In this document: piece after piece, positions 1 to 12,430 of the stretch | Position numbering within the stretch: the first letter of the stretch is position 1 | How the letters are laid out: each line of letters starts with the position of its first letter | Assembly (NCBI GenBank): GCA_963825865.1 | Contig: CAWGVG010000021.1 | Coordinates: 169,709-233,708, forward strand | Reading direction: 5' to 3' | Source of the DNA: an uncultured Nitrososphaeraceae archaeon | Lineage (GTDB): Archaea > Thermoproteota > Nitrososphaeria > Nitrososphaerales > Nitrososphaeraceae | Length of the DNA: 64,000 nucleotides | Notes under the pieces: model-generated | Databases searched by the model: none | The model's input: only the letters and a program-made list of their open reading frames with translations | Told to the model about the DNA's origin: nothing | Made by a program: the position numbers and the translations under genes

Positions 1-213
1 AGTATACTCTCTACAGTATAACCACCATTAAATTTGCCATCCAAGAATCTTTGAAAATGAACTAATGCAGTTTCGTAGTTCTTTTTGTCTTTAGACTATT
101 TCTCCCCACGCTATCTAAAAATGTTCTAACTTTTGGAAGGTTGTTAATTACTGTACGTGTGGAGATAGTTACCGACATTCCTAGTATTATCAACTAAAAT
201 TTAATATATACTT

Positions 214-612
214 TTAAAGTGTATGCTTTTTTGCATGTATCAATTTTTGCAGTTCTTTAACACAAGAACCCAACTCTTGCTTTGCCTCTTGTTCGTTTCC
301 TTTGTTAATTATGATTTCTCCCGGCCCAAATTTTGAACCATTGATTGTAAGTGGTATATCAAGATGTAGCATTTCAGCTATAAATTCAAAAAGATTTGGG
401 TAAGTTAAATTGTTTATATAAACATATGTGGTCGTTCCGTTGCTAACAACTCCTTCTTTCTTTAATGGAAACACAAAATCTGGCGAAGATATAGAATCAA
501 CGATGCTGATTGCTGCATTTTTTGATTCATACCATAATTTCTTATGTTGTTTTTTTAACTCTACGTATTTCTTTGCTGTATATTCTAGTTCATCTAAATT
601 AATCATTACCAC
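214..612 (-). CDS. hypothetical protein
   Basis: 132-aa ORF with protein-like composition, divergent from rnp4; no motif recognised. Confidence 0.6.
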   Translation of the reverse strand: MVMINLDELEYTAKKYVELKKQHKKLWYESKNAAISIVDSISSPDFVFPLKKEGVVSNGTTTYVYINNLTYPNLFEFIAEMLHLDIPLTINGSKFGPGEIIINKGNEQEAKQELGSCVKELQKLIHAKKHTL

Positions 613-744
613 CTAAAGATAATCACACTACAGGTTAATTACAGTATTTACTCGAAAACGAGTAACTAATGATGGGCCAATCAAAAACATAAAATAAATA
701 CTTATGTTTTAATTCGTATTTCGTATTATTGGGTATAATATTAG

Positions 745-1059
745 ATGAGAAAACAACAGATTGCAAAGGAGATTGCAAAGGAAAGGATTTACATTTTGAT
801 AACAAATGCTTTATATGAATTAAAAGAAGAAGATAAAGATAATCTTGTAAATGCTTATGCAAGGCTCGCTAAAAAAATTGCAATGCGTCTGCGCTTAAAG
901 CTTCCTTACGAAATTCGGCAGTTATATTGTAAAGGCTGTAAACAATTTATTTCTCCAGGAAAGAGTGCTAGAGTAAGAATAGGAAGATCAAATACAAAGG
1001 CCATAAGAATTACTTGCTTAAAATGTGGGCATGTTTATCGCAAAGTCTTAAATCACTAA
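745..1059 (+). CDS. rnp4: Ribonuclease P protein component 4 (Rpp21/Rpr2)
   Basis: IAKERI..L, YCKGCK and ITCLKCG Zn motifs; lies upstream of S19e as usual in archaea. Confidence 0.93.
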   Translation: MRKQQIAKEIAKERIYILITNALYELKEEDKDNLVNAYARLAKKIAMRLRLKLPYEIRQLYCKGCKQFISPGKSARVRIGRSNTKAIRITCLKCGHVYRKVLNH

Positions 1060-1139
1060 GGATTGATTACTTCAAAGTAATTCCTATAAATTAAGAATAA
1101 GGATTTATAAGGGATCTACCGCGTGATTATTTAGTAATT

Positions 1140-1592
1140 ATGGCCAAAGCTTATGATATTCCTTCTGATGATCTCATTGCAGTGTTATCTGAACAGCTAA
1201 AAAAAGACAAGAAAATTGAACCTCCAAGCTGGGCAGCATTTGTCAAGACCGGTGCTCATGTTGAAAAAATTCCCCAAAACAGGGACTGGTGGTATACAAG
1301 ATGCGCTTCTCTTTTGAGAAAAGTTTACATCCACGGTCCTATCGGTATTTCGGATCTAAAAAGTAAATATGGTGGCAGAAAACAAATTGGATACAACCTA
1401 TCTCACCATAAGGACGCAGGTGGAGCAATTATTCGTAAGGCATTACACCAACTGGAGGCAGCTGGTTATATCGTCAAAAAAAGCAAAGGTAGATTGATCT
1501 CAGATGAGGGAATGAAAAAAATCGATAGATTAGCCACCGAATCTTATAAAGAGATTATCAAGTCTTCGCCAGAGTTACAACGATACGCCTAG
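1140..1592 (+). CDS. rps19e: 30S ribosomal protein S19e
   Basis: PSWAAFVKTG, DWWYTRCASLLRKVY and IIRKALHQLE signatures. Confidence 0.97.
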   Translation: MAKAYDIPSDDLIAVLSEQLKKDKKIEPPSWAAFVKTGAHVEKIPQNRDWWYTRCASLLRKVYIHGPIGISDLKSKYGGRKQIGYNLSHHKDAGGAIIRKALHQLEAAGYIVKKSKGRLISDEGMKKIDRLATESYKEIIKSSPELQRYA

Positions 1593-1621
1593 GTTTTTCC
1601 TGTGAGGAGAGATGAAGAGGC

Positions 1622-1909
1622 ATGTCGATTCCTCAACCACAAGAACCAAGTGATGAAGACAAGAAGCGGGAAGCTGAAGCAGTGGCTATGCGGCAACGTG
1701 CTCTAATGGTTCTTTTAGAGCCTTCCGCACGTCAAAGGTTGATGAATGTTAGAATGGTCAAACCAGAACTGGCTACAGCAGTTGAAAATTATTTAATAAA
1801 TGCAGCTTCAACAGGAAAACTGAATAAATCACTGACGGATGAAGAATTGAAACAAATCTTACTTAGCATACAGCAACCAAAAAAAGATTTCAAAATAAAC
1901 AGACGCTAA
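1622..1909 (+). CDS. PDCD5/TFAR19-like dsDNA-binding protein
   Basis: LEPSARQRLMNVRMVKPELA..VENYLI; C-terminal FKINRR; conserved neighbour of rps19e. Confidence 0.92.
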   Translation: MSIPQPQEPSDEDKKREAEAVAMRQRALMVLLEPSARQRLMNVRMVKPELATAVENYLINAASTGKLNKSLTDEELKQILLSIQQPKKDFKINRR

Positions 1910-1916
1910 CTAAAAT

Positions 1917-2090
1917 TAATGTAGTTATGGACTTGCTTTAATAGCAGTTTTCTGATATTGATACCAACAACCGATGTCACAGAAAATCAAAATCAAAATC
2001 AATCAAATTTCTGGGTATAATTCAAACGAATATTATAGGAATTTCATCAATTCATGTAAATCTGAAGCCACAAGCGTGATTATCGCAAGG
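1917..2090 (+). repeat. left long terminal inverted repeat (174 bp)
   Basis: TAATGTAGTTATGGAC...TATCGCAAGG matches the reverse complement of 5843-6012. Confidence 0.95.
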
Positions 2091-2560
2091 GCTTAGGCTA
2101 TTTCATGGACTATATGAGCATTGAACCTGAAAAAGAAGATTATGCCAAGTTGATTGAAGGTAGAGATGTCAGGATTATTCAATCCGACATAATCAATTGG
2201 ATCACACATATGAAAGACACAGCAGGATTATCTCCTGCTTCAATCAAGCTTTACACTGCTGGCGTATATCATTTTTACAAAATGAATGATATAGTGCTAA
2301 ACAAAGATAAAGTCAATGCCTTCAAGCCTGAATTTCACAACGTTGTTGAAGACCAGCCATATACAAGGCAACAGATCAAGACAATGTTGGATAAAGCAGA
2401 ACCTAGAAATCGTGCTATAATTCTGTTACTAAGTTCATCAGGTATGCGTGTTGGTGCATTACCGAATTTAAAGGTAGGTGACTTGACGTCTATAGACAAA
2501 TACAACATATATCAGATACAAGTCTACAAACGTTCAAAATCCAAGTATATCACATATTAG
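1974..2560 (+). pseudogene. tyrosine recombinase/integrase, frameshifted near 2072 and truncated before the HxxR/Y catalytic motifs
   Basis: SAM-like N-terminus (LSPASIKLY) and box I RNRAIILLLSSSGMRVGAL..LKVGDL; ends abruptly at YITY*. Confidence 0.88.
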
Positions 2561-2561
2561 T

Positions 2562-2977
2562 ATGGAGCAACAGATTCGAGAAATTCTTAGTTCAATTCAA
2601 CGGTCCATCTGCATCCTTCCGTATTAACGAACCCATTGTAAGACACAACGATCCAAGTTCGCTCAAAGACATTCTTGAGCAATTTATGCTAGGCATTAGT
2701 GTTCCAAATCTCAAATCCGTTGAAGATATCAGATGCGACAAGTATGTTATGAATGGCAATGATGAAACATGTAGCACTGGTTTTTACTAGGACTGTGAGT
2801 TATCTTGATACAAATAAAATCGTCACATTGATGGTAATTTCAGAGCATGAGGGAGTTATGTATTATTTTACATATGAAGCACTTCCAGACAATTTTGATG
2901 CTATACTGCCAACCGTAGAAAAAATGATTAACTCTTTTAAAATATTGGCAAATACGACTCAGACTCTGTCCTCATAA
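2562..2977 (+). pseudogene. PsbP-like (Mog1/PsbP fold) protein fragment
   Basis: C-terminal YYFTYEALPDNFDAILPTVEKMINSFKI motif typical of PsbP-related proteins; no intact N-terminus. Confidence 0.55.
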
Positions 2978-3506
2978 CGTCGTCGCTATCCAACTCAAGA
3001 AGACTTTGAATACCGTTTGGAGAAATAGAGATGGATTATAAAATATGTAATTGGCACTGATTGAGGATTAATTCTCCAAGTTAAAGACAGATGATCAGAA
3101 ATACGACAGAATAAAAGGCATGATAACAGGATAGAAACTAAAACAGACCCACCTTTTAAAATCTGTGATCCCTGTGTTTATGGTGAATATAAGAGGCTTG
3201 AAAGACTATATTAGAAGACCTTATAGACCAGAAAAAGGTATGGTAAACCCTACCGATGGCAATATCTATGAATACGGGTAGGAAGAGTTGACGAACAAAT
3301 AGGCAAACGCTTAGGAATATCGTATGAAACTTAAATTATCCATCATGTTTGTTCATTTGAAAAACGTACGGCATTACAACCGTTCAATTTTGGAAAGTTT
3401 TACAGACCTATGATTAAGATGCTTTTCAAGTATAGGTTATAACTTACGTTATGTTTTGTTAGCTGAAGTAACGCCTCGCCATTACAGGCCTTTTGAGTTC
3501 AAATGT

Positions 3507-3585
3507 GCTATTTGACGGATTTGACGGCGTATTTGACGCGCTATTTGACCGCTCATTGACACATTTGACGCGCTATTTGACGGAC
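3507..3585. repeat. cluster of seven (A)TTTGAC(G) units
   Basis: TTGAC at 3512, 3521, 3533, 3545, 3556, 3565 and 3577. Confidence 0.85.
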
Positions 3586-3689
3586 ATATGATAAATATAT
3601 AAACTGATGTCACTATTTCTTAAGTAAGTAAATAAGAATATGCCTGAGCGATTCCAGAAACTATAAAATCACGAGTTATAATACAATGG

Positions 3690-3798
3690 CTCCAAGGCCT
3701 TATTAGTAAGGTATGAAAAAATCAGAGAACTATCTTGCACTGGTTTGCTTAGCTTGTTGTATTATTGTCTATAGGAGGATAATTTTGGGATAGGCTCT
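3690..3798 (+). pseudogene. IS5-family transposase C-terminal remnant with probable right end
   Basis: LLVRYEK../ENYLALVCLACCIIVYRRIILG* followed by TTTTGGGATAGGCTCT. Confidence 0.6.
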
Positions 3799-3829
3799 TC
3801 CCTGTCTTTTCTTATATGTTGAAAAATTC

Positions 3830-4911
3830 TATGGAGCTTAATCCAATATGACCCTACTATATTTTCGTTCTGTGATATGATATGTAGACATATGGATTAT
3901 ATTGTTCAGACTGGATGCTGGTAATAGCTCTAATACTTGCCATAGTAACACTTGCAGGTTTTATTTCTCCAGCAATCCTTTTAGGACTAATTTTTCTACT
4001 TGGGCTAGAGAGCAATAAGTACGCCTGCATTTTCTCCATTTTTGCTTGGAACAGTTCCTCGTAGCGAGATTAGAAGTGCTATAACATTAAATGGTGTAGC
4101 ATTAAACATTGGTCGAGGAATAGGACCTGCAATTGGTGGTATTATAGTATAGCGATATAGGACCTGCGAGCAGTCTTTCTAATCAACTCCTTGTCATTTA
4201 CTGGAATTGTAATAGTTCTTCTGCGGTACTAAGAACATGAACAGCACAGGGCAGCAAACAGACAGAAGAAATTAGTCGCCTTCCTGCAGAAAGAATGTTT
4301 GGTGCTATTCGGGGCTGGCTTGAGATATGTCAGAAATAGCCCTTCAATAAATAGTGTATTTGTTAGATATACTGCTTTTGCAGTATCATCAAATGCACTT
4401 CCAGCATTACTTCCATCATTATCGCGTTTTGCATTAAGATTAGACTCTACTGGCTATGGAATTTTGTTTGGTCTTTTTGGTGTGGGGGCAATCATAGGTG
4501 GAATTAAAATGTAACCAAGAGCAATTAAGAAAACATCTCCTGATAATTTGGTAGTTATTGCAAAAGCTTATTTTCTCAGTTTCATACATCATACTTGGAT
4601 TGATACATAATCTAGTTGTATTATATGCTCAAATGGTACATAGCTGGAATTGCACAGCTTATGGCATTTTCTACGTTGGTACTTATGTTCTATATCGTGG
4701 TTTGCCAAACTGGGTGATGTCCCGAGTTGCTTCTGTATATCAGTCGAGTTTTGCAAGTACCATAGTGGGTGGAACTTACTTTGGGTGTAAAACTGCTGAC
4801 AAATTAGGAATTAGGATTACGTTACTAATAACAGGTATTGCAATAGTATCAGCAGGATTAATCACAAAGTTAAAGTTCCCTCTCCTGCATGTAGAGGGAG
4901 AAGTCTCTTAA
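3830..4911 (+). pseudogene. MFS transporter pseudogene
   Basis: fragments AITLNGVALNIGRGIGPAIGG, AGLRYVRNSP, LDSTGYGILFGLFGVGAIIGG; several stops and frameshifts. Confidence 0.7.
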
Positions 4912-5842
4912 GACATTTAGTAATACTGTCTAAGACTTTATCTGTCTTCTATGGGTGCTATTTAAAGAACCAAAACGTTAGGCTGACTGAGTTAGGCAGA
5001 AAAAATTGTGATAAAGGAATATCTATTCCACCATCAACTCATCAGGCACGTTAACCTATGATAAGACTGACTAGTGAATAATCGGACCAACTACCATGGA
5101 TGGATGGATGATAATGCGGGCAATTGCAGATTTGGACATCTTGACCAAATTAAACAGATAAACAAACATGGATTTAATTTTTGAATTACAAACAGATCGT
5201 TACTGATGATCAGAAACACTATGTCCGAAAAATAGATAAATGGAATTCTTCCTTGTTAACTAATTTATCAAAGGATCAATGCTATACCTGGTTTTGATGT
5301 CCGATCCTTTTCTAGTTACATGCAATCACGAAGTAACCTTTTTCTATCCACTTTAGCATTTCTGCCGCTTACAGTTTCAGATGAAGTCCATTCCATCTCC
5401 TCTTCAGTCGCAGACTTAGAACTTCTAAGCTCATGCACACAAAACTTGTATCTGTTAACTGGTTTGTCTGGTTGGCTTTCATATGTAACTATCTCTTCGG
5501 TGGTTTTTTTGGGACAAATTGCAGTAACTTATGATCTCCATCTTTGAACTTGATGAATTTCGTGTTCCTTGAAGATGCTTTCTGGTCTCCAATTGTAACC
5601 TCATATCTGCTGCCTTACGTTTGGTTTCCTCACTTAGGACTTGTTTGCCTGTATTCTTTGTACTTGTTTTTTATTTACATTTACACTTGCAGTTTGATTT
5701 GCTGACATTTTACTATCAAGCAAGCATACAACGTTTACCAATATGGCTTTTTTCATCTTACATTGTTATCTAGATCATCATACTCTGTTGATTCTTTACA
5801 TACTCTATATGGCTTGAATTCTTTGCATTTACATTCAAACAA

Positions 5843-6012
5843 CCTTGCGATAATCACGCTTGTGGCTTCAGATTTACATGAATTGATGAAATTCCTATAA
5901 TATTCGTTTGAATTATACCCAGAAATTTGATTGATTTTGATTTTGATTTTCTGTGACATCGGTTGTTGGTATCAGTATCAGAAAACTGCTATTAAAGTCC
6001 ATAACTACATTA
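5843..6012 (-). repeat. right long terminal inverted repeat (170 bp)
   Basis: reverse complement of 1917-2090; encodes the same MSQKIKIKINQ...SEAT N-terminus (ORF 5753-5959). Confidence 0.95.
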
Positions 6013-6157
6013 ACTAAAATAGTTGTTTTATATATAATTTTTTGCACATATATATATATATATATGCTATCTCAGCTAACTTGACAAGGCATATCTCGTT
6101 AAAATTAGCGATTTGGGTTTAGTTAACTATATTAAGTCTTGACATCGTTTCAATTTT

Positions 6158-7208
6158 ATGAAGGCAGCCGTATTTCGGGAATATAATAAAGATCCTACAA
6201 AAGTTGTGAAGATTGAAGATATTGACATGCCAAAATTGAAACCTAACGAAGTTATGATGAAGGTAGAATCAGCATCATACAATTATAATGACCTTTGGGC
6301 TATTTGGGGAGACCCGCTTAAAGTTCCAATACCACATATTTCTGGCAGCGATGTGGCAGGTACCTATAGTAGAGGCTGGCGAAGATGTTACAAAATTCAA
6401 GGTCGGAGACAGGGTTGTCTCACATTCTAACTTAAGCTGCAGAGTTTGTAATATGTGTACATCTGGGAGAGAGTATGACTGCAATGATAGATTAGTCTGG
6501 GGATTCCAGACGGGTCCACTGTGGGGCGGTTTTGTTCAATATACACATCTACCAGAAGTAAACGTTGCCAAAATACCGGACAATATATCATTTGATGACG
6601 CAGCCGCAATCTCAATGGTTGGAATGACTGCATGGCACATGTTAGTAGGCAGAGCCAAGATAAAGCCTGGTCAAACAGTCCTGATCATGGGTGGGACCAG
6701 TGGAGTAGGCATGGCAGGAATTCAGATTGCAAAATTATACAACTGCACCGTCATTGCTACTGCAGGTAATAAAGAAAAAATGGACAAATGTTCAGAGATA
6801 GGCGCAGACTATGTAGTTAACCACAGAGAAGCAGATTGGCATAAGAAGGTAAGAGAGATTACAAAGAAACAGGGCGTAGATGTTATCTTTGAACATATCG
6901 GCAAAGCAGCATTTGCACAAGAAGTTGCCCTTTTGAAGATGGCTGGAACTCTTGTAGCGACAGGTGCAACTACTGGTTACGATTCAACTATTGACTTGAG
7001 ATATCTCTTCTTCAAAGGAACAAACTTGCTCGGCTCCACTCAGGGAACTAAAGCTGAACTAGAAGAGGTAATTTATTGGACGGGCAAGGGCAAGATAAAG
7101 CCCATTATTCATACAATTCTACCCTTTAGTGACATGGTAAAAGGCCATATAATGATGGCTAATGCTGAACAGATTGGAAAAATTCTAACTACACCACAGA
7201 AACTCTAA
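6158..7208 (+). CDS. Zn-dependent MDR-family alcohol dehydrogenase (candidate acryloyl-CoA reductase-type enzyme of the 3HP/4HB cycle); one frameshift near 6362
   Basis: PHISGSDVAG, structural Zn CRVCNMC..C, GGTSGVG NAD(P)-binding loop; split across ORFs 6158-6430 and 6288-7208. Confidence 0.88.
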
Positions 7209-7244
7209 TCTTCATCCTCCTTCTCTTGTCTTTCATACATACAG

Positions 7245-8165
7245 ATGATGTTCAGAAGTCTGATATTTGTTCCTAGCAACATCAAGCGTTTTATTAATAA
7301 AGTTAAGGTAGTAAATGCGGATATTATATGCTTTGATCTAGAAGATTCTGTCCCTGTAAATGAAAAAGCTGTCGCGAGGCAGACGATCATGGAGGCGCTG
7401 ACACAAAGGACGGAATATAAATCAAATGTCTATATCAGGATAAATTCCTTTGAATCTGGTCTAGCACTTCTAGACCTAAACGCAATAATTCGCAAGGGAA
7501 TTGATGGAATTGTCATACCAAAGGTAAATGACGAAATGGAATTTTCCAATCTAGTAGATCTTATTTCTACTCTTGAGCAGAAGAGGGGAATTGAAAAGAA
7601 CAGTATCAAATTGATGCCATCTATTGAAACTGCAAAAGGTGTGGTTAATGCTTATTCCATAGCAAAGACAGTTCAAAGAGTAAATGCGTTAGTTTTTGGA
7701 GTTTTTGATTTCCTTTATGATATGCGTCTTGATTATGATGAAAATGATGGAATTGAATATGCATATGCTCGCGCCAAAGTCTCTGTTGATGCAAGAGCTG
7801 CAGGAGTTGCCGCTATTGACGGCATCTGGCAAAAAGTCGACGATATTGATGGGTTAAGAAAAGATGCTATAATTGCAAAGCGATTAGGATATTCAGGAAA
7901 GAGTATAATTCATCCTAATCATATAGAAACAGTTCACAAAATTTTTGTCCCAAACAGAAAAGAAATTGAATGGGCAAAGAAAGTATTGGAAGCGCTGGGT
8001 GAAGCAATGGAAAAAGGAGCCAACAGAGGTACAGTTAAGCTTGAAGGAAAAATGATTGATGCTGTACATTACAAACAGGCAAAGGCAATTTTGGATGCTA
8101 TAAATAATAATAAAAATAAAAATAATAATAAAAATAAAAATTTGAATTTAGAAAATCCAAAATAA
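7245..8165 (+). CDS. CitE/HpcH-family CoA-ester lyase (citryl/malyl-CoA lyase-like)
   Basis: RSLIFVP, FDLEDSV, YIRIN, IETAKG, GKSIIHP and GKMIDA motifs. Confidence 0.92.
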   Translation: MMFRSLIFVPSNIKRFINKVKVVNADIICFDLEDSVPVNEKAVARQTIMEALTQRTEYKSNVYIRINSFESGLALLDLNAIIRKGIDGIVIPKVNDEMEFSNLVDLISTLEQKRGIEKNSIKLMPSIETAKGVVNAYSIAKTVQRVNALVFGVFDFLYDMRLDYDENDGIEYAYARAKVSVDARAAGVAAIDGIWQKVDDIDGLRKDAIIAKRLGYSGKSIIHPNHIETVHKIFVPNRKEIEWAKKVLEALGEAMEKGANRGTVKLEGKMIDAVHYKQAKAILDAINNNKNKNNNKNKNLNLENPK

Positions 8166-8166
8166 C

Positions 8167-9410
8167 GTCATAAAGATTGTCGGGAAGGAAACCCACATTT
8201 CTTTAGAAGTGGGAGGAATTCCCGACTATGATAAAAGCTAAATACTGGGTTATTGATAGATATTTCCAATATTCTTGCTTCAATCCCTAACGATCAGGCT
8301 TGAAACTTCAGAAGAAGATAAAATCACTTTGCTAGAGACTATGAGAAAATACAATGAAGCATGCAATTTTGTTGCTGAAAAAGCATTTTTCTTAAAGTTA
8401 ACTAACAAATACAAACTGCATAAGGAAGTATATAGAGAGATAAGAGAGAAGTTTAACCAAAGTTCTCAGTTCGCTGTTAGGATAATAGGGAAGGTTGTAG
8501 AGGCATACAAAAGAGATAAAACAACCAAGCCCAAGTTTAGAGAACTTGGAGCAATCCAATACGATCAGCGCAATTCCAAAATAGGAATTGACAAAGTATC
8601 AATAATGACATTAAACGGAAGGATCAAACTTGCAACCAGGATAGGCGAAGTACCAGAAATCAAGGTTTGACAGGGTAAAAGGGCAATCTGATTTAATTTA
8701 TAGAAATGGAATTTTCTACCTAATTGTAGTTGTTGATGCATCTGAGAAATCAAATGAATACGATCCAGTAGGTGCTTTAGGCGTTGATCTAGGAATTGAG
8801 AATATAGCAGTAGATTCAGATCGGCAGGTATTTGAAAGCAAGAAAGTTGAGAAATCAAGGAAAAGGTACTCTGGATTACGAAAGGAATTGCAGAAGGTAG
8901 GGACTAAATCAGCAAAGAGAAAGTTAAAGAAATTATCAGGTAAGGAACGAAGATTCAAGAAGGATGCTAACCACGTTATATCAAAGGCCATTGTCTCAAA
9001 GGCTAAAGGCACAGCTAGGGCTATAGGGATGGAAGACTTGACAAATATATGCACAAGCTCTAGGGCAACTGTTAACTTCAAAGGTAGCAAAAGAGACAGG
9101 CATTCAAAATGGAGCTTTGGAGAATTGAGGAACTTTGTAACGTACAAGGCAAAGAATGAAGGTGTCCCATTGAAGATTGTAAGTTCTAAGAACACTTCAA
9201 GGCAATGCCCTGAATGCGAATACATAGATCAGAGAAACAGAAAATCAAGGAATGAATTTGAATGCCTTCAATGTGGCTATAATGAAATGGCGGACTATGT
9301 TGCAGCAAAGAATATTGCTGCCAAGGCTAGGGCTGCAGTCAATCAGCCTATTGTAGCACCTCTTTTTTCGGTAGTTACAAGCCCACATACTTTAGTGGTG
9401 GGTAGTTGAC
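8167..9410 (+). mobile_element. IS200/IS605-family TnpB-only (IS1341-like) element
   Basis: left hairpin GTCGGGAA..CCCAC..GTGGG..TTCCCGAC (8179-8226), right hairpin CCCAC..GTGGG followed by TAGTTGAC (ends 9410); no tnpA; boundaries approximate. Confidence 0.8.
8275..9409 (+). CDS. tnpB: TnpB RNA-guided endonuclease (frameshifted between ~8640 and 8720)
   Basis: YNEACN N-terminus; RuvC-I LGVDLG, RuvC-II GMEDL, Zn finger CPEC...CLQC, RuvC-III ADYVAAKNI. Confidence 0.92.
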
Positions 9411-9439
9411 ATAAAATTATAGGATACAATATACCCAGC

Positions 9440-9502
9440 CCTCTAGTGCAATGTAATTTTATACTTGCTTGTTTATTTTAAATTGTTGATTAATTAATTG
9501 AT
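9440..9502 (+). repeat. attL-like direct repeat
   Basis: CCTCTAGTGCAATGTAATTTTATACTTGCTTGTTTATTTTAAATTGTTGATTAATTAATTGAT. Confidence 0.9.
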
Positions 9503-9530
9503 TAATCGGTATCTAATACTGGTTTATTAG

Positions 9531-10140
9531 ATGGATGATGACATTATTTTTCATATATCTATGAAAAAAGATGCACCTTCTTTTTATCATCATCAAACAA
9601 CGGATACCTCTTCTTCTTCTTCCATTACTGCTGATTATAAATCGATTGAAAGTAATTCAGAACTGTTATTTGATCGAAAGGTTGATCAAGCTACGGCAGG
9701 CTTAGATTCACACTATCGTGAGAGCCTAAAAAACAAAGTATCAAAGGAAAATGCTCTTGCAATATCAAATTTCGTCCTTGCAATGAAGTCTGAAATCAAT
9801 CTTTCAGATCATTATAGAAGGCTAATTATTACAGTGCTATGCAAATTCTCTTGCTTCCACAACAACAATCAGAAACCCTTTAGTGAAATATCTAGAGACG
9901 ATGTACTATCTTATCTGGACAGCCTTCGCAAACCAGAAGTGATAGATCCGTTGCATAAATGGTTAGGCACGTACAACCTTTACAGAATGTTATTAATGAG
10001 ATTTTTCAGATGGTTTTATTACCAAGATATAGAGCCAAACAAAAGACCAAAACCGAAGGCAGTTGAAAACATCGCCCAATTGAAAAGGAAAGAGCAGTCA
10101 ATATACAAACCTACTGACTTATGGAGCAAAGAAGATGACA
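9531..10140 (+). pseudogene. integrase N-terminal (core-binding) fragment, catalytic domain lost
   Basis: EINLSDHYRR, ISRDDVLSYLDSLRKPE..DPLHKWLGTYN..RFFRW, KPTDLWSKEDD as in Nitrososphaera-type integrases; protein-like sequence stops at ~10140. Confidence 0.78.
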
Positions 10141-10373
10141 TCTTCGTCATGAATATATCTAGGTGTAGCCGCCATAATCAGACAATCATATTTTTTAATT
10201 TCTTCTTCAATGTCCTCTAATAAATTTGACGGTGACTGCGTATATTTTCCTACTGTCCCTCCGGTAGAAAATCCTTTTGATTGCGCTAAATTTATAACAT
10301 TTTCTACAAAAGGTTTATCCTCTTCTCTCGAACTACAACTTAAGAAAGCTTTTATATTTTGATCGTCTGCCAT
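10119..10373 (-). pseudogene. TIR-like/NDT-like flavodoxin-fold domain, N-terminal fragment
   Basis: KAFLSCSSREEDKPFVENV and IEEEIKKYDCLIMAATPRY resemble TIR betaA-alphaA and alphaB-betaC; truncated. Confidence 0.55.
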
Positions 10374-11098
10374 TAATTGCTTAACAGAATATTATCAAAT
10401 TATTGTATTTTTAGGTTACTTGTTGTTTATTTCAACTTTTACTATTTTATGATTCATAAGGACCATTTATTGCTAATTAGCTAACTATCAGATTTTTGTA
10501 GTCAAATTTTTTAGCAATTCCTACGCCTGCATTCTATAACTATAGCGCTGTTACTACTGCTATCTTCGTCTTCTTTTCCGACGCATTGCAGGTTGTAGTT
10601 ATATGCATCTTTGTTGAATGCCTCTCATTGTAATTCTTCTTGTACACGTTCATTCGTTTAATTGCTGATTGAAGCTTGTGACAGAAACCATTTTTGATTA
10701 TATGTAGATTGGTCTGAACTAAGCTGACTCTGTGTTAGTTCAAGATGAGCCCTTTCATACTGCAAGTCTTTTATTCCATCCTTCGCATTGTGCATTTACT
10801 TGTGATGCTCTACTATCTAGAGCTATAAACACTAAAACTAACAATATTCCAACTATTGTGCTTGCTGTAGTCAAATACCCTAGCTGTTTTAAGCTGCCCT
10901 TTTTGATGTTATTTTAGCTGCAAAATTTTGTCAATAGCGTGTGTATACCATGCCACATAGAATTTCTTTGTTTATAAAATTTTTCATTGAAATCAACTAA
11001 AATTCAGTTTGTTTTAGAACAATTTTAAATGACTTTATATAATATTATTCATCCTTCGCTTAAGAGTATCGATGTGGTGCATTTTGTTACCTTAAATA

Positions 11099-12430
11099 GT
11101 GGGCTGTGAATAATTAGCCCTGGAAGCATTTCACACACCTTGTAAGGTCGGGTCTCCCTGTTTCTACAGCTGTCTTTGTCACCAGTAACATCACCATACT
11201 GATACACATTGAATGTAATGTAGCCCATTCTGTTCCTCTATGTTTTAACGAATCAAGGTTTAGCGAACCTTTTCCAATGGAGAATCCTTGTTCCGATAGT
11301 GTCCTTGCATCAAATTCCTTATCGAATTCTTCTGAGCCTGGGTCTACCCAGTAATTCTTGATAAAATTTCTGGCATAGAATCGATAACACAGTACCTTCC
11401 TTCTGGCCTTCTTCTCTTCTGGTGTGGAACCTTTAGATCTTCTTGTATTGAGCGGTATGAATGGTACTGCCTTCAGCCTTTTGACTATCTGTAGCCTAGT
11501 TTTATAGCCATCATATTCAGCATCTGCTAGGAATTTCCTGATTTTGATGAGAGGTAGATTCAGCAATACCATTTTGATAAACCATGAAACAGTTCTATTC
11601 TCTCCGTAACCTGCTTTTGTTATAGTAAGCATCACTGGAAGTCCAGAATCAGAATCAATCGCTACATGAACTTTGTATCCATAGACGTACTTTTCCCTGT
11701 GATGGTCCCATGTCCATGAAGCATCTCTATCTCTGCTCCTGTTACGCCTGCATTCCTTCTTATCGTGTCTAGGATTGTTACTCCATCTGCAGCCCTTGAA
11801 CCAAGCCCATATTATAGAACAGTCAAGGCTTACCTTCTCTCCTTTGATTATACCGAGGTTTATCAGCTGAATTACTACCTGTATAAATATTTCCAGCATC
11901 TTCTCCTGTCCAAGCATTCCAGCAAACTTGTAAAAGGTACTCCTGTCAGGCACCTTGTACTTTGTCTCTCTATGTACCGTCTTATTCAAGTTAAGTGTTA
12001 CGAGCCATTGATTATGAGCATTTAGAAAACGTATTAGATCCAGTATGCTCTCCATACTTTGTAGATACATCAGCAACAATGCCATGAATATAGAACTAGG
12101 ACGATATCCCTTGGGTCCTGACCTTTCCTTCCTGCCAGGGTCTACTATCTTGTCCACAAACGCGAAATCTGTTTTTGCAAAAATCAGTTCTGAAGGAAAT
12201 GAATCCTCTCTTACTGGTTTAGGTTGTTGTTTCCTATGCTTGCCGTCTTTATCTGCCTGTTGTTTGTATCTGCTATTCCCACAGGAGCCATTATCATCAT
12301 GGATAAGAGCTCTATCACAGCCATTGCTTCGGATCTATTATCACCAAAATCAATCCTTTGGGACGGTTCATAGCTTTACCGAATGAATCTGATTGACAAA
12401 ACGGTAAGATGCTAATTATTCACAGCCCTC
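11099..12430 (-). mobile_element. IS5/IS1182-like insertion sequence (1332 bp)
   Basis: 20-bp TIRs G(T/A)GGGCTGTGAATAATTAGC at 11099-11118 and 12411-12430; TAAATA duplicated at 11093-11098 and 12431-12436. Confidence 0.9.
11114..12157 (-). CDS. DDE transposase (DDE_Tnp_1-like); true start probably further upstream
   Basis: PDRSTFYKF, SLDCS, DRDASW, YGYKVHVAIDSDSGLP, FLADAEYD, R..SE. Confidence 0.9.
   Translation of the reverse strand: MDKIVDPGRKERSGPKGYRPSSIFMALLLMYLQSMESILDLIRFLNAHNQWLVTLNLNKTVHRETKYKVPDRSTFYKFAGMLGQEKMLEIFIQVVIQLINLGIIKGEKVSLDCSIIWAWFKGCRWSNNPRHDKKECRRNRSRDRDASWTWDHHREKYVYGYKVHVAIDSDSGLPVMLTITKAGYGENRTVSWFIKMVLLNLPLIKIRKFLADAEYDGYKTRLQIVKRLKAVPFIPLNTRRSKGSTPEEKKARRKVLCYRFYARNFIKNYWVDPGSEEFDKEFDARTLSEQGFSIGKGSLNLDSLKHRGTEWATLHSMCISMVMLLVTKTAVETGRPDLTRCVKCFQG

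Follow-up and report, generated by a model that had tools for sequence, protein, structure and literature searches.

A 4.1-kb insertion with long inverted arms at the PDCD5 stop codon of a Nitrososphaeraceae archaeon, possibly a defective derivative of a tyrosine-integrase element

What kind of element has inserted itself directly behind PDCD5, a core gene, in an uncultured Nitrososphaeraceae archaeon, an ammonia oxidiser of soil? The locus lies in a stretch of 64,000 nucleotides (contig CAWGVG010000021.1 of assembly GCA_963825865.1, positions 169,709 to 233,708), which is called the window here. It comprises positions 1917-6012 of the window, bounded by long inverted arms and flanked on both sides by a short direct repeat. 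The source genome (G000) is a metagenome-assembled genome of 4.98 Mb in 62 contigs and is 82% complete. A preliminary description of the locus had regarded it as a non-autonomous transposon-like element of an undescribed type. The reading favoured here, with a probability of roughly 0.55, is that it derives from a tyrosine-integrase integrative element of Thaumarchaeota (a "cryptic integrated element") and is defective and non-autonomous. Those parts of the earlier interpretation that concern a real insertion, the lack of autonomy and the origin from an integrase locus have held; its premise against a tyrosine recombinase was not supported, and the proposal of a new transposon type is not favoured by the evidence.

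The long, near-perfect terminal inverted repeats (TIRs) were confirmed. A repeat search of the window returned two pairs of inverted segments, one of 155 nt with 99% identity (1936-2090/5843-5997) and an outer one of 19 nt with 100% identity (1916-1934/5995-6013). Pairwise alignment merged both into a single inverted repeat, with the left arm at 1917-2090 on the forward strand and the right arm at 5843-6012 on the reverse strand. The arms differ by one 4-bp indel (TTGC, present in the left arm only) and by one T/C substitution, both located near the tip. Bases exist at the indel position in two paralogous integrase loci, C27 and C29, which indicates that the left arm keeps the ancestral length and that the right arm, 4 bp shorter, is the copy. 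The left arm ends in an 11-bp tip, TTAATGTAGTT.

The octamer ACTAAAAT was found at 1909-1916 and again at 6013-6020, touching both arm tips, and the direct repeat grows to 10 bp, TAACTAAAAT, when the terminal TA of the right arm is included. The chance of an exact 8-bp match at fixed positions was estimated as about 3e-5, based on a G+C content of about 35%. The left copy overlaps the stop codon (TAA, 1907-1909) of the gene for a PDCD5-like dsDNA-binding protein (1622-1909, forward strand; PF01984, E 6.6e-25). Both the exact flanking repeat and the insertion at the PDCD5 stop codon thus stand as first reported.

The flanking genes are adjacent in relatives. With positions 1000-7300 as query, the two flanks were found 41-200 bp apart on a single contig in 15 of 40 other genomes. 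The gene for a zinc-type alcohol dehydrogenase (ADH; 6158-7208, forward strand; PF08240 and PF00107) is the conserved right neighbour of PDCD5, as supported by alignment with relatives; the copy in the window has one extra base at about 6363-6365. Among 80 loci of the ribosomal protein S19e gene fetched from Nitrososphaeraceae species genomes, PDCD5 and ADH were both present on one strand in 74. The gap between them measured 56-393 bp in 68 of these 74 loci and 795-2133 bp in the other six, and a relative of the integrase was absent from all 80. The larger gaps (6/74) were inspected as candidate mobile elements and rejected, as ordinary genes are found there, for instance one for a membrane-anchored protein of 127-146 aa. 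This extra gene was seen between PDCD5 and ADH in L172, L177, L171, L179 and G017 (L004); in G017 the flanks lie about 1 kb apart and the gap is occupied by an ordinary small gene. The PDCD5-ADH intergenic region is therefore variable for reasons beyond mobile elements. In the closest relatives the PDCD5 stop codon is followed immediately by ...GACGTTAGCTAAAAATTATT... and ...GACGTTAACTAAT..., and close relatives carry one TAACTAAAT-like or TAGCTAAAAAT-like copy at this place. This single copy shows that the repeated octamer is host sequence. The element itself was specific to the source genome among the genomes searched.

The site was also found to differ among soil strains. Logan contigs (not reads) of four soil and rhizosphere metagenome runs, X1, X2, X4 and X6, were compared with positions 1400-6600, and window parts without contig cover in X2, X4 and X6 were excluded as evidence. 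One contig of X2 (2565 nt, depth 7.8) and one of X6 (12981 nt, depth 21) each aligned to 1400-1920 and 6075-6600 and hardly differed from the window otherwise; the two matched parts are separated by 50 letters in X2 and by 47 in X6. For a clean empty site holding one ACTAAAAT, 54 nt would be expected from 1916 to 6075, equal to the 50 letters of X2 plus the 4 letters aligned up to 1920. Between the insertion site and the ADH promoter there is a (TA)n microsatellite (6036-6074), the length of which apparently varies between strains (47 versus 50 letters in the empty-site contigs); the shorter X6 value can be explained by this tract. Both junctions, the single similar copy in relatives and the contig spacing agree with a short repeat that is present once at the empty site. 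Pieces of the interior were present in all four runs, at the lower depth of 2.5-4.8 in the empty-site runs X2 and X6, which fits a presence/absence polymorphism of the element among near-identical soil strains. The 4.1 kb represent a real, recent insertion, and the clean empty PDCD5-ADH site that the preliminary description called for was recovered, as adjacency of the flanks in relatives and as spacing in the X2 and X6 contigs.

In X1, contigs were found to end at 1910 and to begin at 6018. The bin of the left arm had a depth of 14.7, compared with 8.4 for the flanks and 2.6-7.6 for neighbouring interior bins, and one contig matched two places of the window. Depth and contig breaks fit a two-copy inverted repeat in a real molecule. 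These observations bear on the suspicion that a false inverted duplication or a chimeric join was created during metagenome assembly. The suspicion gains from the state of the genome (62 contigs, 82% complete), from the single-base gaps that make up most of its differences from the metagenome contigs, such as the extra ADH base missing in three runs, and from the fact that neither flank-arm junction was bridged by any of the listed contigs of the four runs. Against it, the 4-bp indel and the substitution near the tip give each junction its own sequence, the TIR bin of X1 has about twice the depth of flanks and interior, a single contig fits two places, breaks at 1910 and 6018 are what a real repeat is expected to produce, and interior pieces occur in all four runs. 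An assembly artefact is considered very improbable.

The gene from which the arms derive is a truncated tyrosine-integrase gene at 1974-2560 on the forward strand, reaching from the SAM-like N-terminal part into the beginning of the catalytic domain. As first described, both arms contain the integrase upstream region and the first ~38 codons, and the gene continues from the left arm only; it has to be added that a frameshift at about 2070 (ACAAG, versus ACAAAG in the C29 paralog) lies inside the repeat and is hence present in both arms. The match to PF00589 was partial, covering positions 4-68 of a profile of 172 and scoring 23 bits, below the cut-off of 27.1, and the product is 64% identical to the C27 paralog. 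Homology by tblastx to four paralogs (C27, C33, C28 and C62) stops at 2557, immediately before a stop codon at 2558-2560, leaving a fragment of ~195 N-terminal codons. No match to the C-terminal catalytic half was found anywhere in the element, which accordingly encodes no complete tyrosine-recombinase catalytic domain. An X1 contig likewise has a stop (TAA) at this codon; together with the absence of the catalytic half, this makes the truncation independent of assembly indels. Without a catalytic half the element is a derivative, and not an autonomous member, of the thaumarchaeal integrase elements, in line with its first description as non-autonomous. The integrase family itself is widespread, with a match in 148 of 238 Nitrososphaeraceae genomes. 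This tally includes six genomes flagged as unpublished (G250, G235, G156, G183, G184 and G117), two of which contributed loci to the 30-locus scan of the tip motif given below; no other claim depends on them.

The outer boundary of the arms proved informative. Upstream of the integrase genes of C27 and C29, the sequence can be aligned with the arm as far as the tip, beyond which it diverges. The origin of the element from an integrase locus, as first proposed, is supported. C27 has the tip TTAATGTAGTT unchanged, and the looser counterpart in C29 is TTAACATACTT. At C27 the integrase belongs to an island of ~12.5 kb (C27:158638-171201; L013:3139-15702) between Lrp-like and TtcA-like genes, and the island is missing between the same two genes in G010, G009 and G015. 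Its cargo comprises the integrase, a Prim-Pol/D5-type helicase, a winged helix-turn-helix protein and a pair of DUF5678 and aspartyl-protease genes. The island is bounded by a 14-bp direct repeat, CATTAAGAATGATT, which consists of the last 5 bp of the tip and 9 bp of flank. No long inverted repeat was found there, and the far end (TATCTGGTT...) shows at best a weak inverted match to the tip (by eye). The C27 island is a typical cryptic integrated element. As judged from these alignments, the tip is the att-side end of this integrase lineage, with the direct repeat starting at the same place relative to the tip in both elements; an integrase-side end is thus shared with autonomous relatives, through the alignment of C27 and C29 up to the tip and the overlap of the C27 att repeat with it. 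A search of IMG/VR for relatives of the C27 integrase returned one weak match of 32% identity.

The C29 locus (C29:110320-111062; L014:6318-7063) holds an integrase 5' fragment, 86% identical to that of the window, between a conserved 77-bp stretch and pyrB. The fragment is fused in frame to what we take, by eye, to be a helicase/ATPase fragment, and the 77-bp stretch is presumably a tRNA gene. The locus is another decayed element end.

The combination of TIRs with an 8-10-bp direct repeat had been taken as an argument against a tyrosine recombinase. This premise was not supported. In published surveys, att sites of thaumarchaeal integrase elements range down to 8 bp with a median of 17, and of 68 such elements 15 are intergenic and 14 occupy the 3'-distal part of a protein gene (PMC6563490; PMC8371274). 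The core sites of tyrosine recombinases (lambda, SSV, dif) are likewise described there as inverted binding repeats around a 6-8-bp overlap, of 7 bp in lambda and in an 11+6+11 arrangement in dif (PMC8371274). The tip at the PDCD5 locus, moreover, is the end of a related island.

A mechanism that would account for the structure can be outlined as follows. The insertion would have occurred by site-specific recombination at an attB overlapping the PDCD5 stop codon. The two copies of ACTAAAAT would be the overlap (crossover) region common to attL (1909-1916) and attR (6013-6020), and not necessarily a fill-in target-site duplication, and the outermost ~11 bp of each arm would be a putative core-binding half-site of the integrase. 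The right arm would be an inverted duplication of the integrase-proximal end, by which a short, imperfect inverted core repeat would have been turned into a near-perfect one of 174 bp. This may have come about by gene conversion from the left end, or by a template switch for which the short inverted core repeat served as the seed, either before or after integration. The excised site would then be lox/FRT-like, with an arm, an 8-bp asymmetric spacer and an inverted arm, and recombination of a free form arm-ACTAAAAT-inverted arm with a target carrying the octamer would yield inverted ends plus an 8-bp direct repeat, as observed. As the integrase is truncated, movement in the present form needs an integrase in trans. 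Insertion and excision would depend on a paralogous enzyme that reads the same tip, and that of C27 is the obvious candidate.

The lox and FRT sites consist of 13-bp inverted repeats around an 8-bp spacer, and in the yeast 2-micron plasmid FRT is part of long inverted repeats. The predicted excised junction resembles these and dif sites in that inverted binding elements surround an 8-bp asymmetric spacer; the likeness is one of layout only, since each arm exceeds a binding element more than tenfold in length and the recombinase would belong to the archaeal integrase family and not to the Cre/Flp type. A second parallel is given by the pdif modules of Acinetobacter plasmids, which are Xer-dependent and use 28-bp sites on bacterial plasmids. 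They too carry cargo as discrete units between inverted tyrosine-recombinase sites and are mobilised in trans, as is proposed for the element at PDCD5, but they have no long arms derived from a recombinase gene.

The closest likeness in kind is to the cryptic integrated elements of Thaumarchaeota, with which the element shares the integrase family, a very short direct repeat, a position at the 3' end of a protein gene and an empty site in relatives (Krupovic et al. 2019, PMC6563490). Its sister island at C27 has both parts of the complete module, an integrase and the Prim-Pol/D5 helicase. Unlike these elements, the one at PDCD5 has neither the catalytic half of the integrase nor a replication gene, and its cargo consists of fragments. 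It further differs in the 174-bp inverted copy of the integrase-proximal end at its far end, a case that does not occur in the consulted parts of PMC6563490 and PMC8371274. An archaeal integrase element with ends made of long inverted copies of the start of its integrase gene was likewise not found in the literature searched, of which only part of each text was covered; this is not proof of absence.

The preliminary description had pointed to a DDE transposase or a casposase as the enzyme behind the element. The structure could indeed be a true cut-and-paste or replicative transposon, non-autonomous, with tips read by a DDE or other transposase encoded elsewhere; the 8-bp repeat would then be a fill-in target-site duplication and the integrase fragment recruited end DNA. 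Target duplications of 8 bp are made by several DDE insertion sequences, miniature inverted-repeat transposable elements (MITEs) and composite transposons, for example of the IS6, ISL3, IS1595 and hAT types. Like these, the element combines near-perfect TIRs with an exact 8-bp repeat on its flanks and a clean empty site, and it contains no working recombinase or transposase. The presence of TIRs and a flanking duplication of fixed length is, however, also true of tyrosine-recombinase core sites, so it is not diagnostic. Multiple TIR copies with differing duplications and a cognate transposase, as expected of such a family, were not encountered. By blastn and fuzzy searches of the 4.98-Mb source genome no further copy of the TIR or the tip was found besides the two arms, and the TIR remained without a match in 237 other genomes of the family, in a search of limited sensitivity that scored two candidates per genome. 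No transposase with the same tips was detected in the source genome or, at the same sensitivity, in those 237. Instead of the further copies and the autonomous partner that the preliminary description proposed to look for, the tip was shared only with the C27 integrase island and, more loosely, with C29. The element is thus single-copy, its ends are integrase-gene DNA and its tip is the att-side end of integrase islands. The 14-bp repeat of the C27 island reaches 5 bp into this tip, which a fill-in duplication would not predict. A transposase origin is on this evidence judged unlikely.

Matches of the tip 16-mer in the source genome with at most two mismatches were rejected as coincidence, as they sit inside a repeat family of ~1 kb and not at element ends. 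This family contains fragments of a distant integrase paralog (C14:153594-154205, C26:120961-121730, C47:8688-9669, C54:7117-7847 and C57:22799-23142) and carries TAATGTAGTTAAGAAC inside its coding region, which differs from the TIR tip at two positions.

The casposase version of the transposon explanation fared no better. Casposons, the self-synthesising transposons with a Cas1-solo enzyme, share with the element the TIRs of variable length and direct repeats, the occurrence in Thaumarchaeota and the frequent insertion at gene 3' ends (PMC8464041; PMC6563490). No casposase of the Cas1 family was found in the element or the genome, with zero matches to PF01867 in a source genome that is 82% complete; the same profile, used as a control, matched in 7 of 14 known genomes. 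Published target-site duplications measure 13 bp in casposons of family 1 and ~14 bp in those of family 2 (PMC8464041), compared with 8 bp, or 10 with the overlap, at the PDCD5 locus, which is short of the ~13-15 bp expected of a casposon. The label of an undescribed transposon type is therefore not favoured by the evidence; it is the arm length alone that is unusual. In Nitrososphaeraceae, where integrase att sites can be 8 bp, TIRs plus a short target-site duplication are by themselves insufficient to call a transposase-type element.

A different history was considered for the right arm. The element may have arrived by an ordinary integration with a normal right end and then decayed, and gene conversion or a template switch may later have written the left end in inverse over the right one, so that the unit with TIRs never moved. 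The polymorphism would in that case go back to the original integration or to a deletion between the 8-bp repeats. The patchwork of truncated genes and repeat fragments in the interior suggests a long residence or repeated rearrangement, and long arms were seen at none of the other integrase loci tested, which both speak for such a course. It does less well with the right arm stopping exactly at the tip beside an intact 8-bp repeat, and with arms that are ~99% alike and an empty site in near-identical strains, both of which point to a young insertion more than to one of long standing and decay. This history is a variant of the integrase-derivative reading and does not contradict it; it is quite possible, although the probability given to it is low.

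An invertible, phase-variable segment was weighed as well. A recombinase would flip the interior and thereby switch which gene receives the integrase promoter and the first 38 codons, a notion encouraged by the promoter region and start codon in each inverted repeat, facing inward to two different genes. With identical arms, however, inversion yields the mirror image, and only the orientation relative to the flanks would change. In addition, when the frame of the paralogs is restored, the open reading frame (ORF) of the right arm stops two codons past the arm (by eye), and the integrase is truncated. Such a switch is therefore regarded as highly unlikely.

Several observations weigh against the derivation from an integrase element that is favoured here. 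TIRs with an 8-bp repeat are just what is expected of several DDE families too, and the two mechanisms cannot be told apart from a single copy; only one such element was found in everything searched. The evidence for the empty site is a spacing in contigs with the letters between the flanks unseen, and the left piece was mapped to 1920 and not to 1916. The half-sites of attB resemble the tip only weakly (by eye). The exact tip motif was found upstream of 30 family integrase loci (38-100% identity) only at the C27 locus itself, so that no family-wide consensus could be derived, and the C27 integrase reads frameshifted in the assembly, be it real or an assembly indel. An inverse repeat of the integrase 5' region within 45 kb was found at 1 of 18 integrase loci of the source genome, that of the element in the window, and at none of the other 17, and the long arms may thus be a one-off accident without function. 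An inverted pair 41 kb apart on C14 belongs to a different repeat family, the ~1-kb one with fragments of a distant integrase paralog, and was dismissed as a second such element.

Neither an excised circle nor an arm-spacer-arm junction was seen in metagenome contigs, which adds to the case against this derivation, as does the finding that a related integrase lies near none of 80 fetched stretches (80 of 111; loci L059-L138) that carry the palindromic pattern ACTACATTA-N8-TAATGTAGT. This pattern, a 9-nt tip followed by eight bases and the inverted tip, occurs in 111 unrelated metagenome stretches. The fetched ones show mostly palindromic, operator-like contexts, and their spacers recur (TAATGTTA 13 times, CTATATAG 11 times). 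The palindrome looks like the operator of an unrelated, widespread system and is uninformative on the element. The exact 29-nt TIR pattern gave no match in public metagenome contigs, and the whole element as query gave none in phage and plasmid collections.

If the long arms were functional, the element would stand for a class of non-autonomous cargo modules in ammonia-oxidising archaea, with a symmetric lox-like site made from an inversely duplicated integrase end; the resident integrase of another element would insert and excise these modules in trans. This is a speculative extension to which little probability is given. Should it hold, the modules would be a tyrosine-recombinase counterpart of MITEs and pdif modules, the polymorphism among soil strains would reflect current activity, and a symmetric, long-armed site that is active would be a new way to build trans-mobilised modules. 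What is documented is an insertion that is polymorphic among near-identical soil strains in an element without a working recombinase of its own. The tip with its ACTAAAAT site and the C27 integrase form a testable pair for a thaumarchaeal integrase family that is very common and biochemically uncharacterised.

The interior between the arms is a mosaic. A fragment of a repeated locus at 3370-3700 (reverse strand) comprises the upstream region and 5' end of a gene for a helix-turn-helix (HTH) protein and is 88% identical to C26:200583-200932, with weaker matches on C2 and C22. It is followed at 3701-3799 by a 100-bp end piece of a repeat family of ~880 bp, which was recognised by sequence matches and by a depth spike in all four runs. 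Pieces of an MFS_3 transporter gene in several frames occupy 3915-4911 on the forward strand (PF05977, E 1.6e-14 and 2.2e-7 for two ORFs). A copy of a small-protein gene family, broken in the assembly, lies at 5260-5750 on the reverse strand; its intact paralog of 139 aa (C21:136779-137195) matched no Pfam family. The ORF at 2753-2977 was considered as a 3' fragment of a secreted-protein family and left uncertain, the match to a C27 island protein being weak (E 0.062) and that to C29 by tblastx short. No Pfam polymerase family was found among the scanned ORFs of the element, no search aimed at pPolB having been made, and tRNA and Rfam scans of positions 1-12000 returned nothing.

Over the interior from 3839 to 5260 the window differs from X1 contigs mostly by single-base gaps. 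The MFS region has nine gaps relative to a 683-nt contig of X1, and its breaks may partly be assembly indels. The extra base at 6363-6365 that breaks the ADH gene is missing from X1, X2 and X6 contigs. Some frameshifts of the source genome are thus probably assembly indels, and "pseudogenes" defined by frameshifts are untrustworthy without reads.

Further genes surround the insertion site. Upstream of PDCD5 the window carries the genes for ribosomal protein S19e and RNase P Rpr2, and downstream of the insert the ADH gene is accompanied by an HpcH/citrate-lyase-like gene. For the S19e protein, every relative is a record from Nitrososphaeraceae or Nitrososphaerales, with identities of up to 85%. 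At 8275-9409 a TnpB/Cas12f-like gene (PF07282 TNB domain) is split into two ORFs; it looks like a remnant of the IS200/IS605 type or another assembly frameshift.

The ~880-bp family has many copies in the source genome and in family genomes, often at contig ends (for example C21:147608-148485, C15:98944-99815 and C45:22085-22971), and its depth was 48-157 in the four runs, compared with ~8-21 for the flanks, which three of the runs cover. Clustered at 3507-3582, upstream of the HTH-gene fragment, are short direct repeats of the ATTTGACG(N) type, in a region that is repeated on C26, C2 and C22; they may represent iteron-like repeats or operators that belong to another mobile element.

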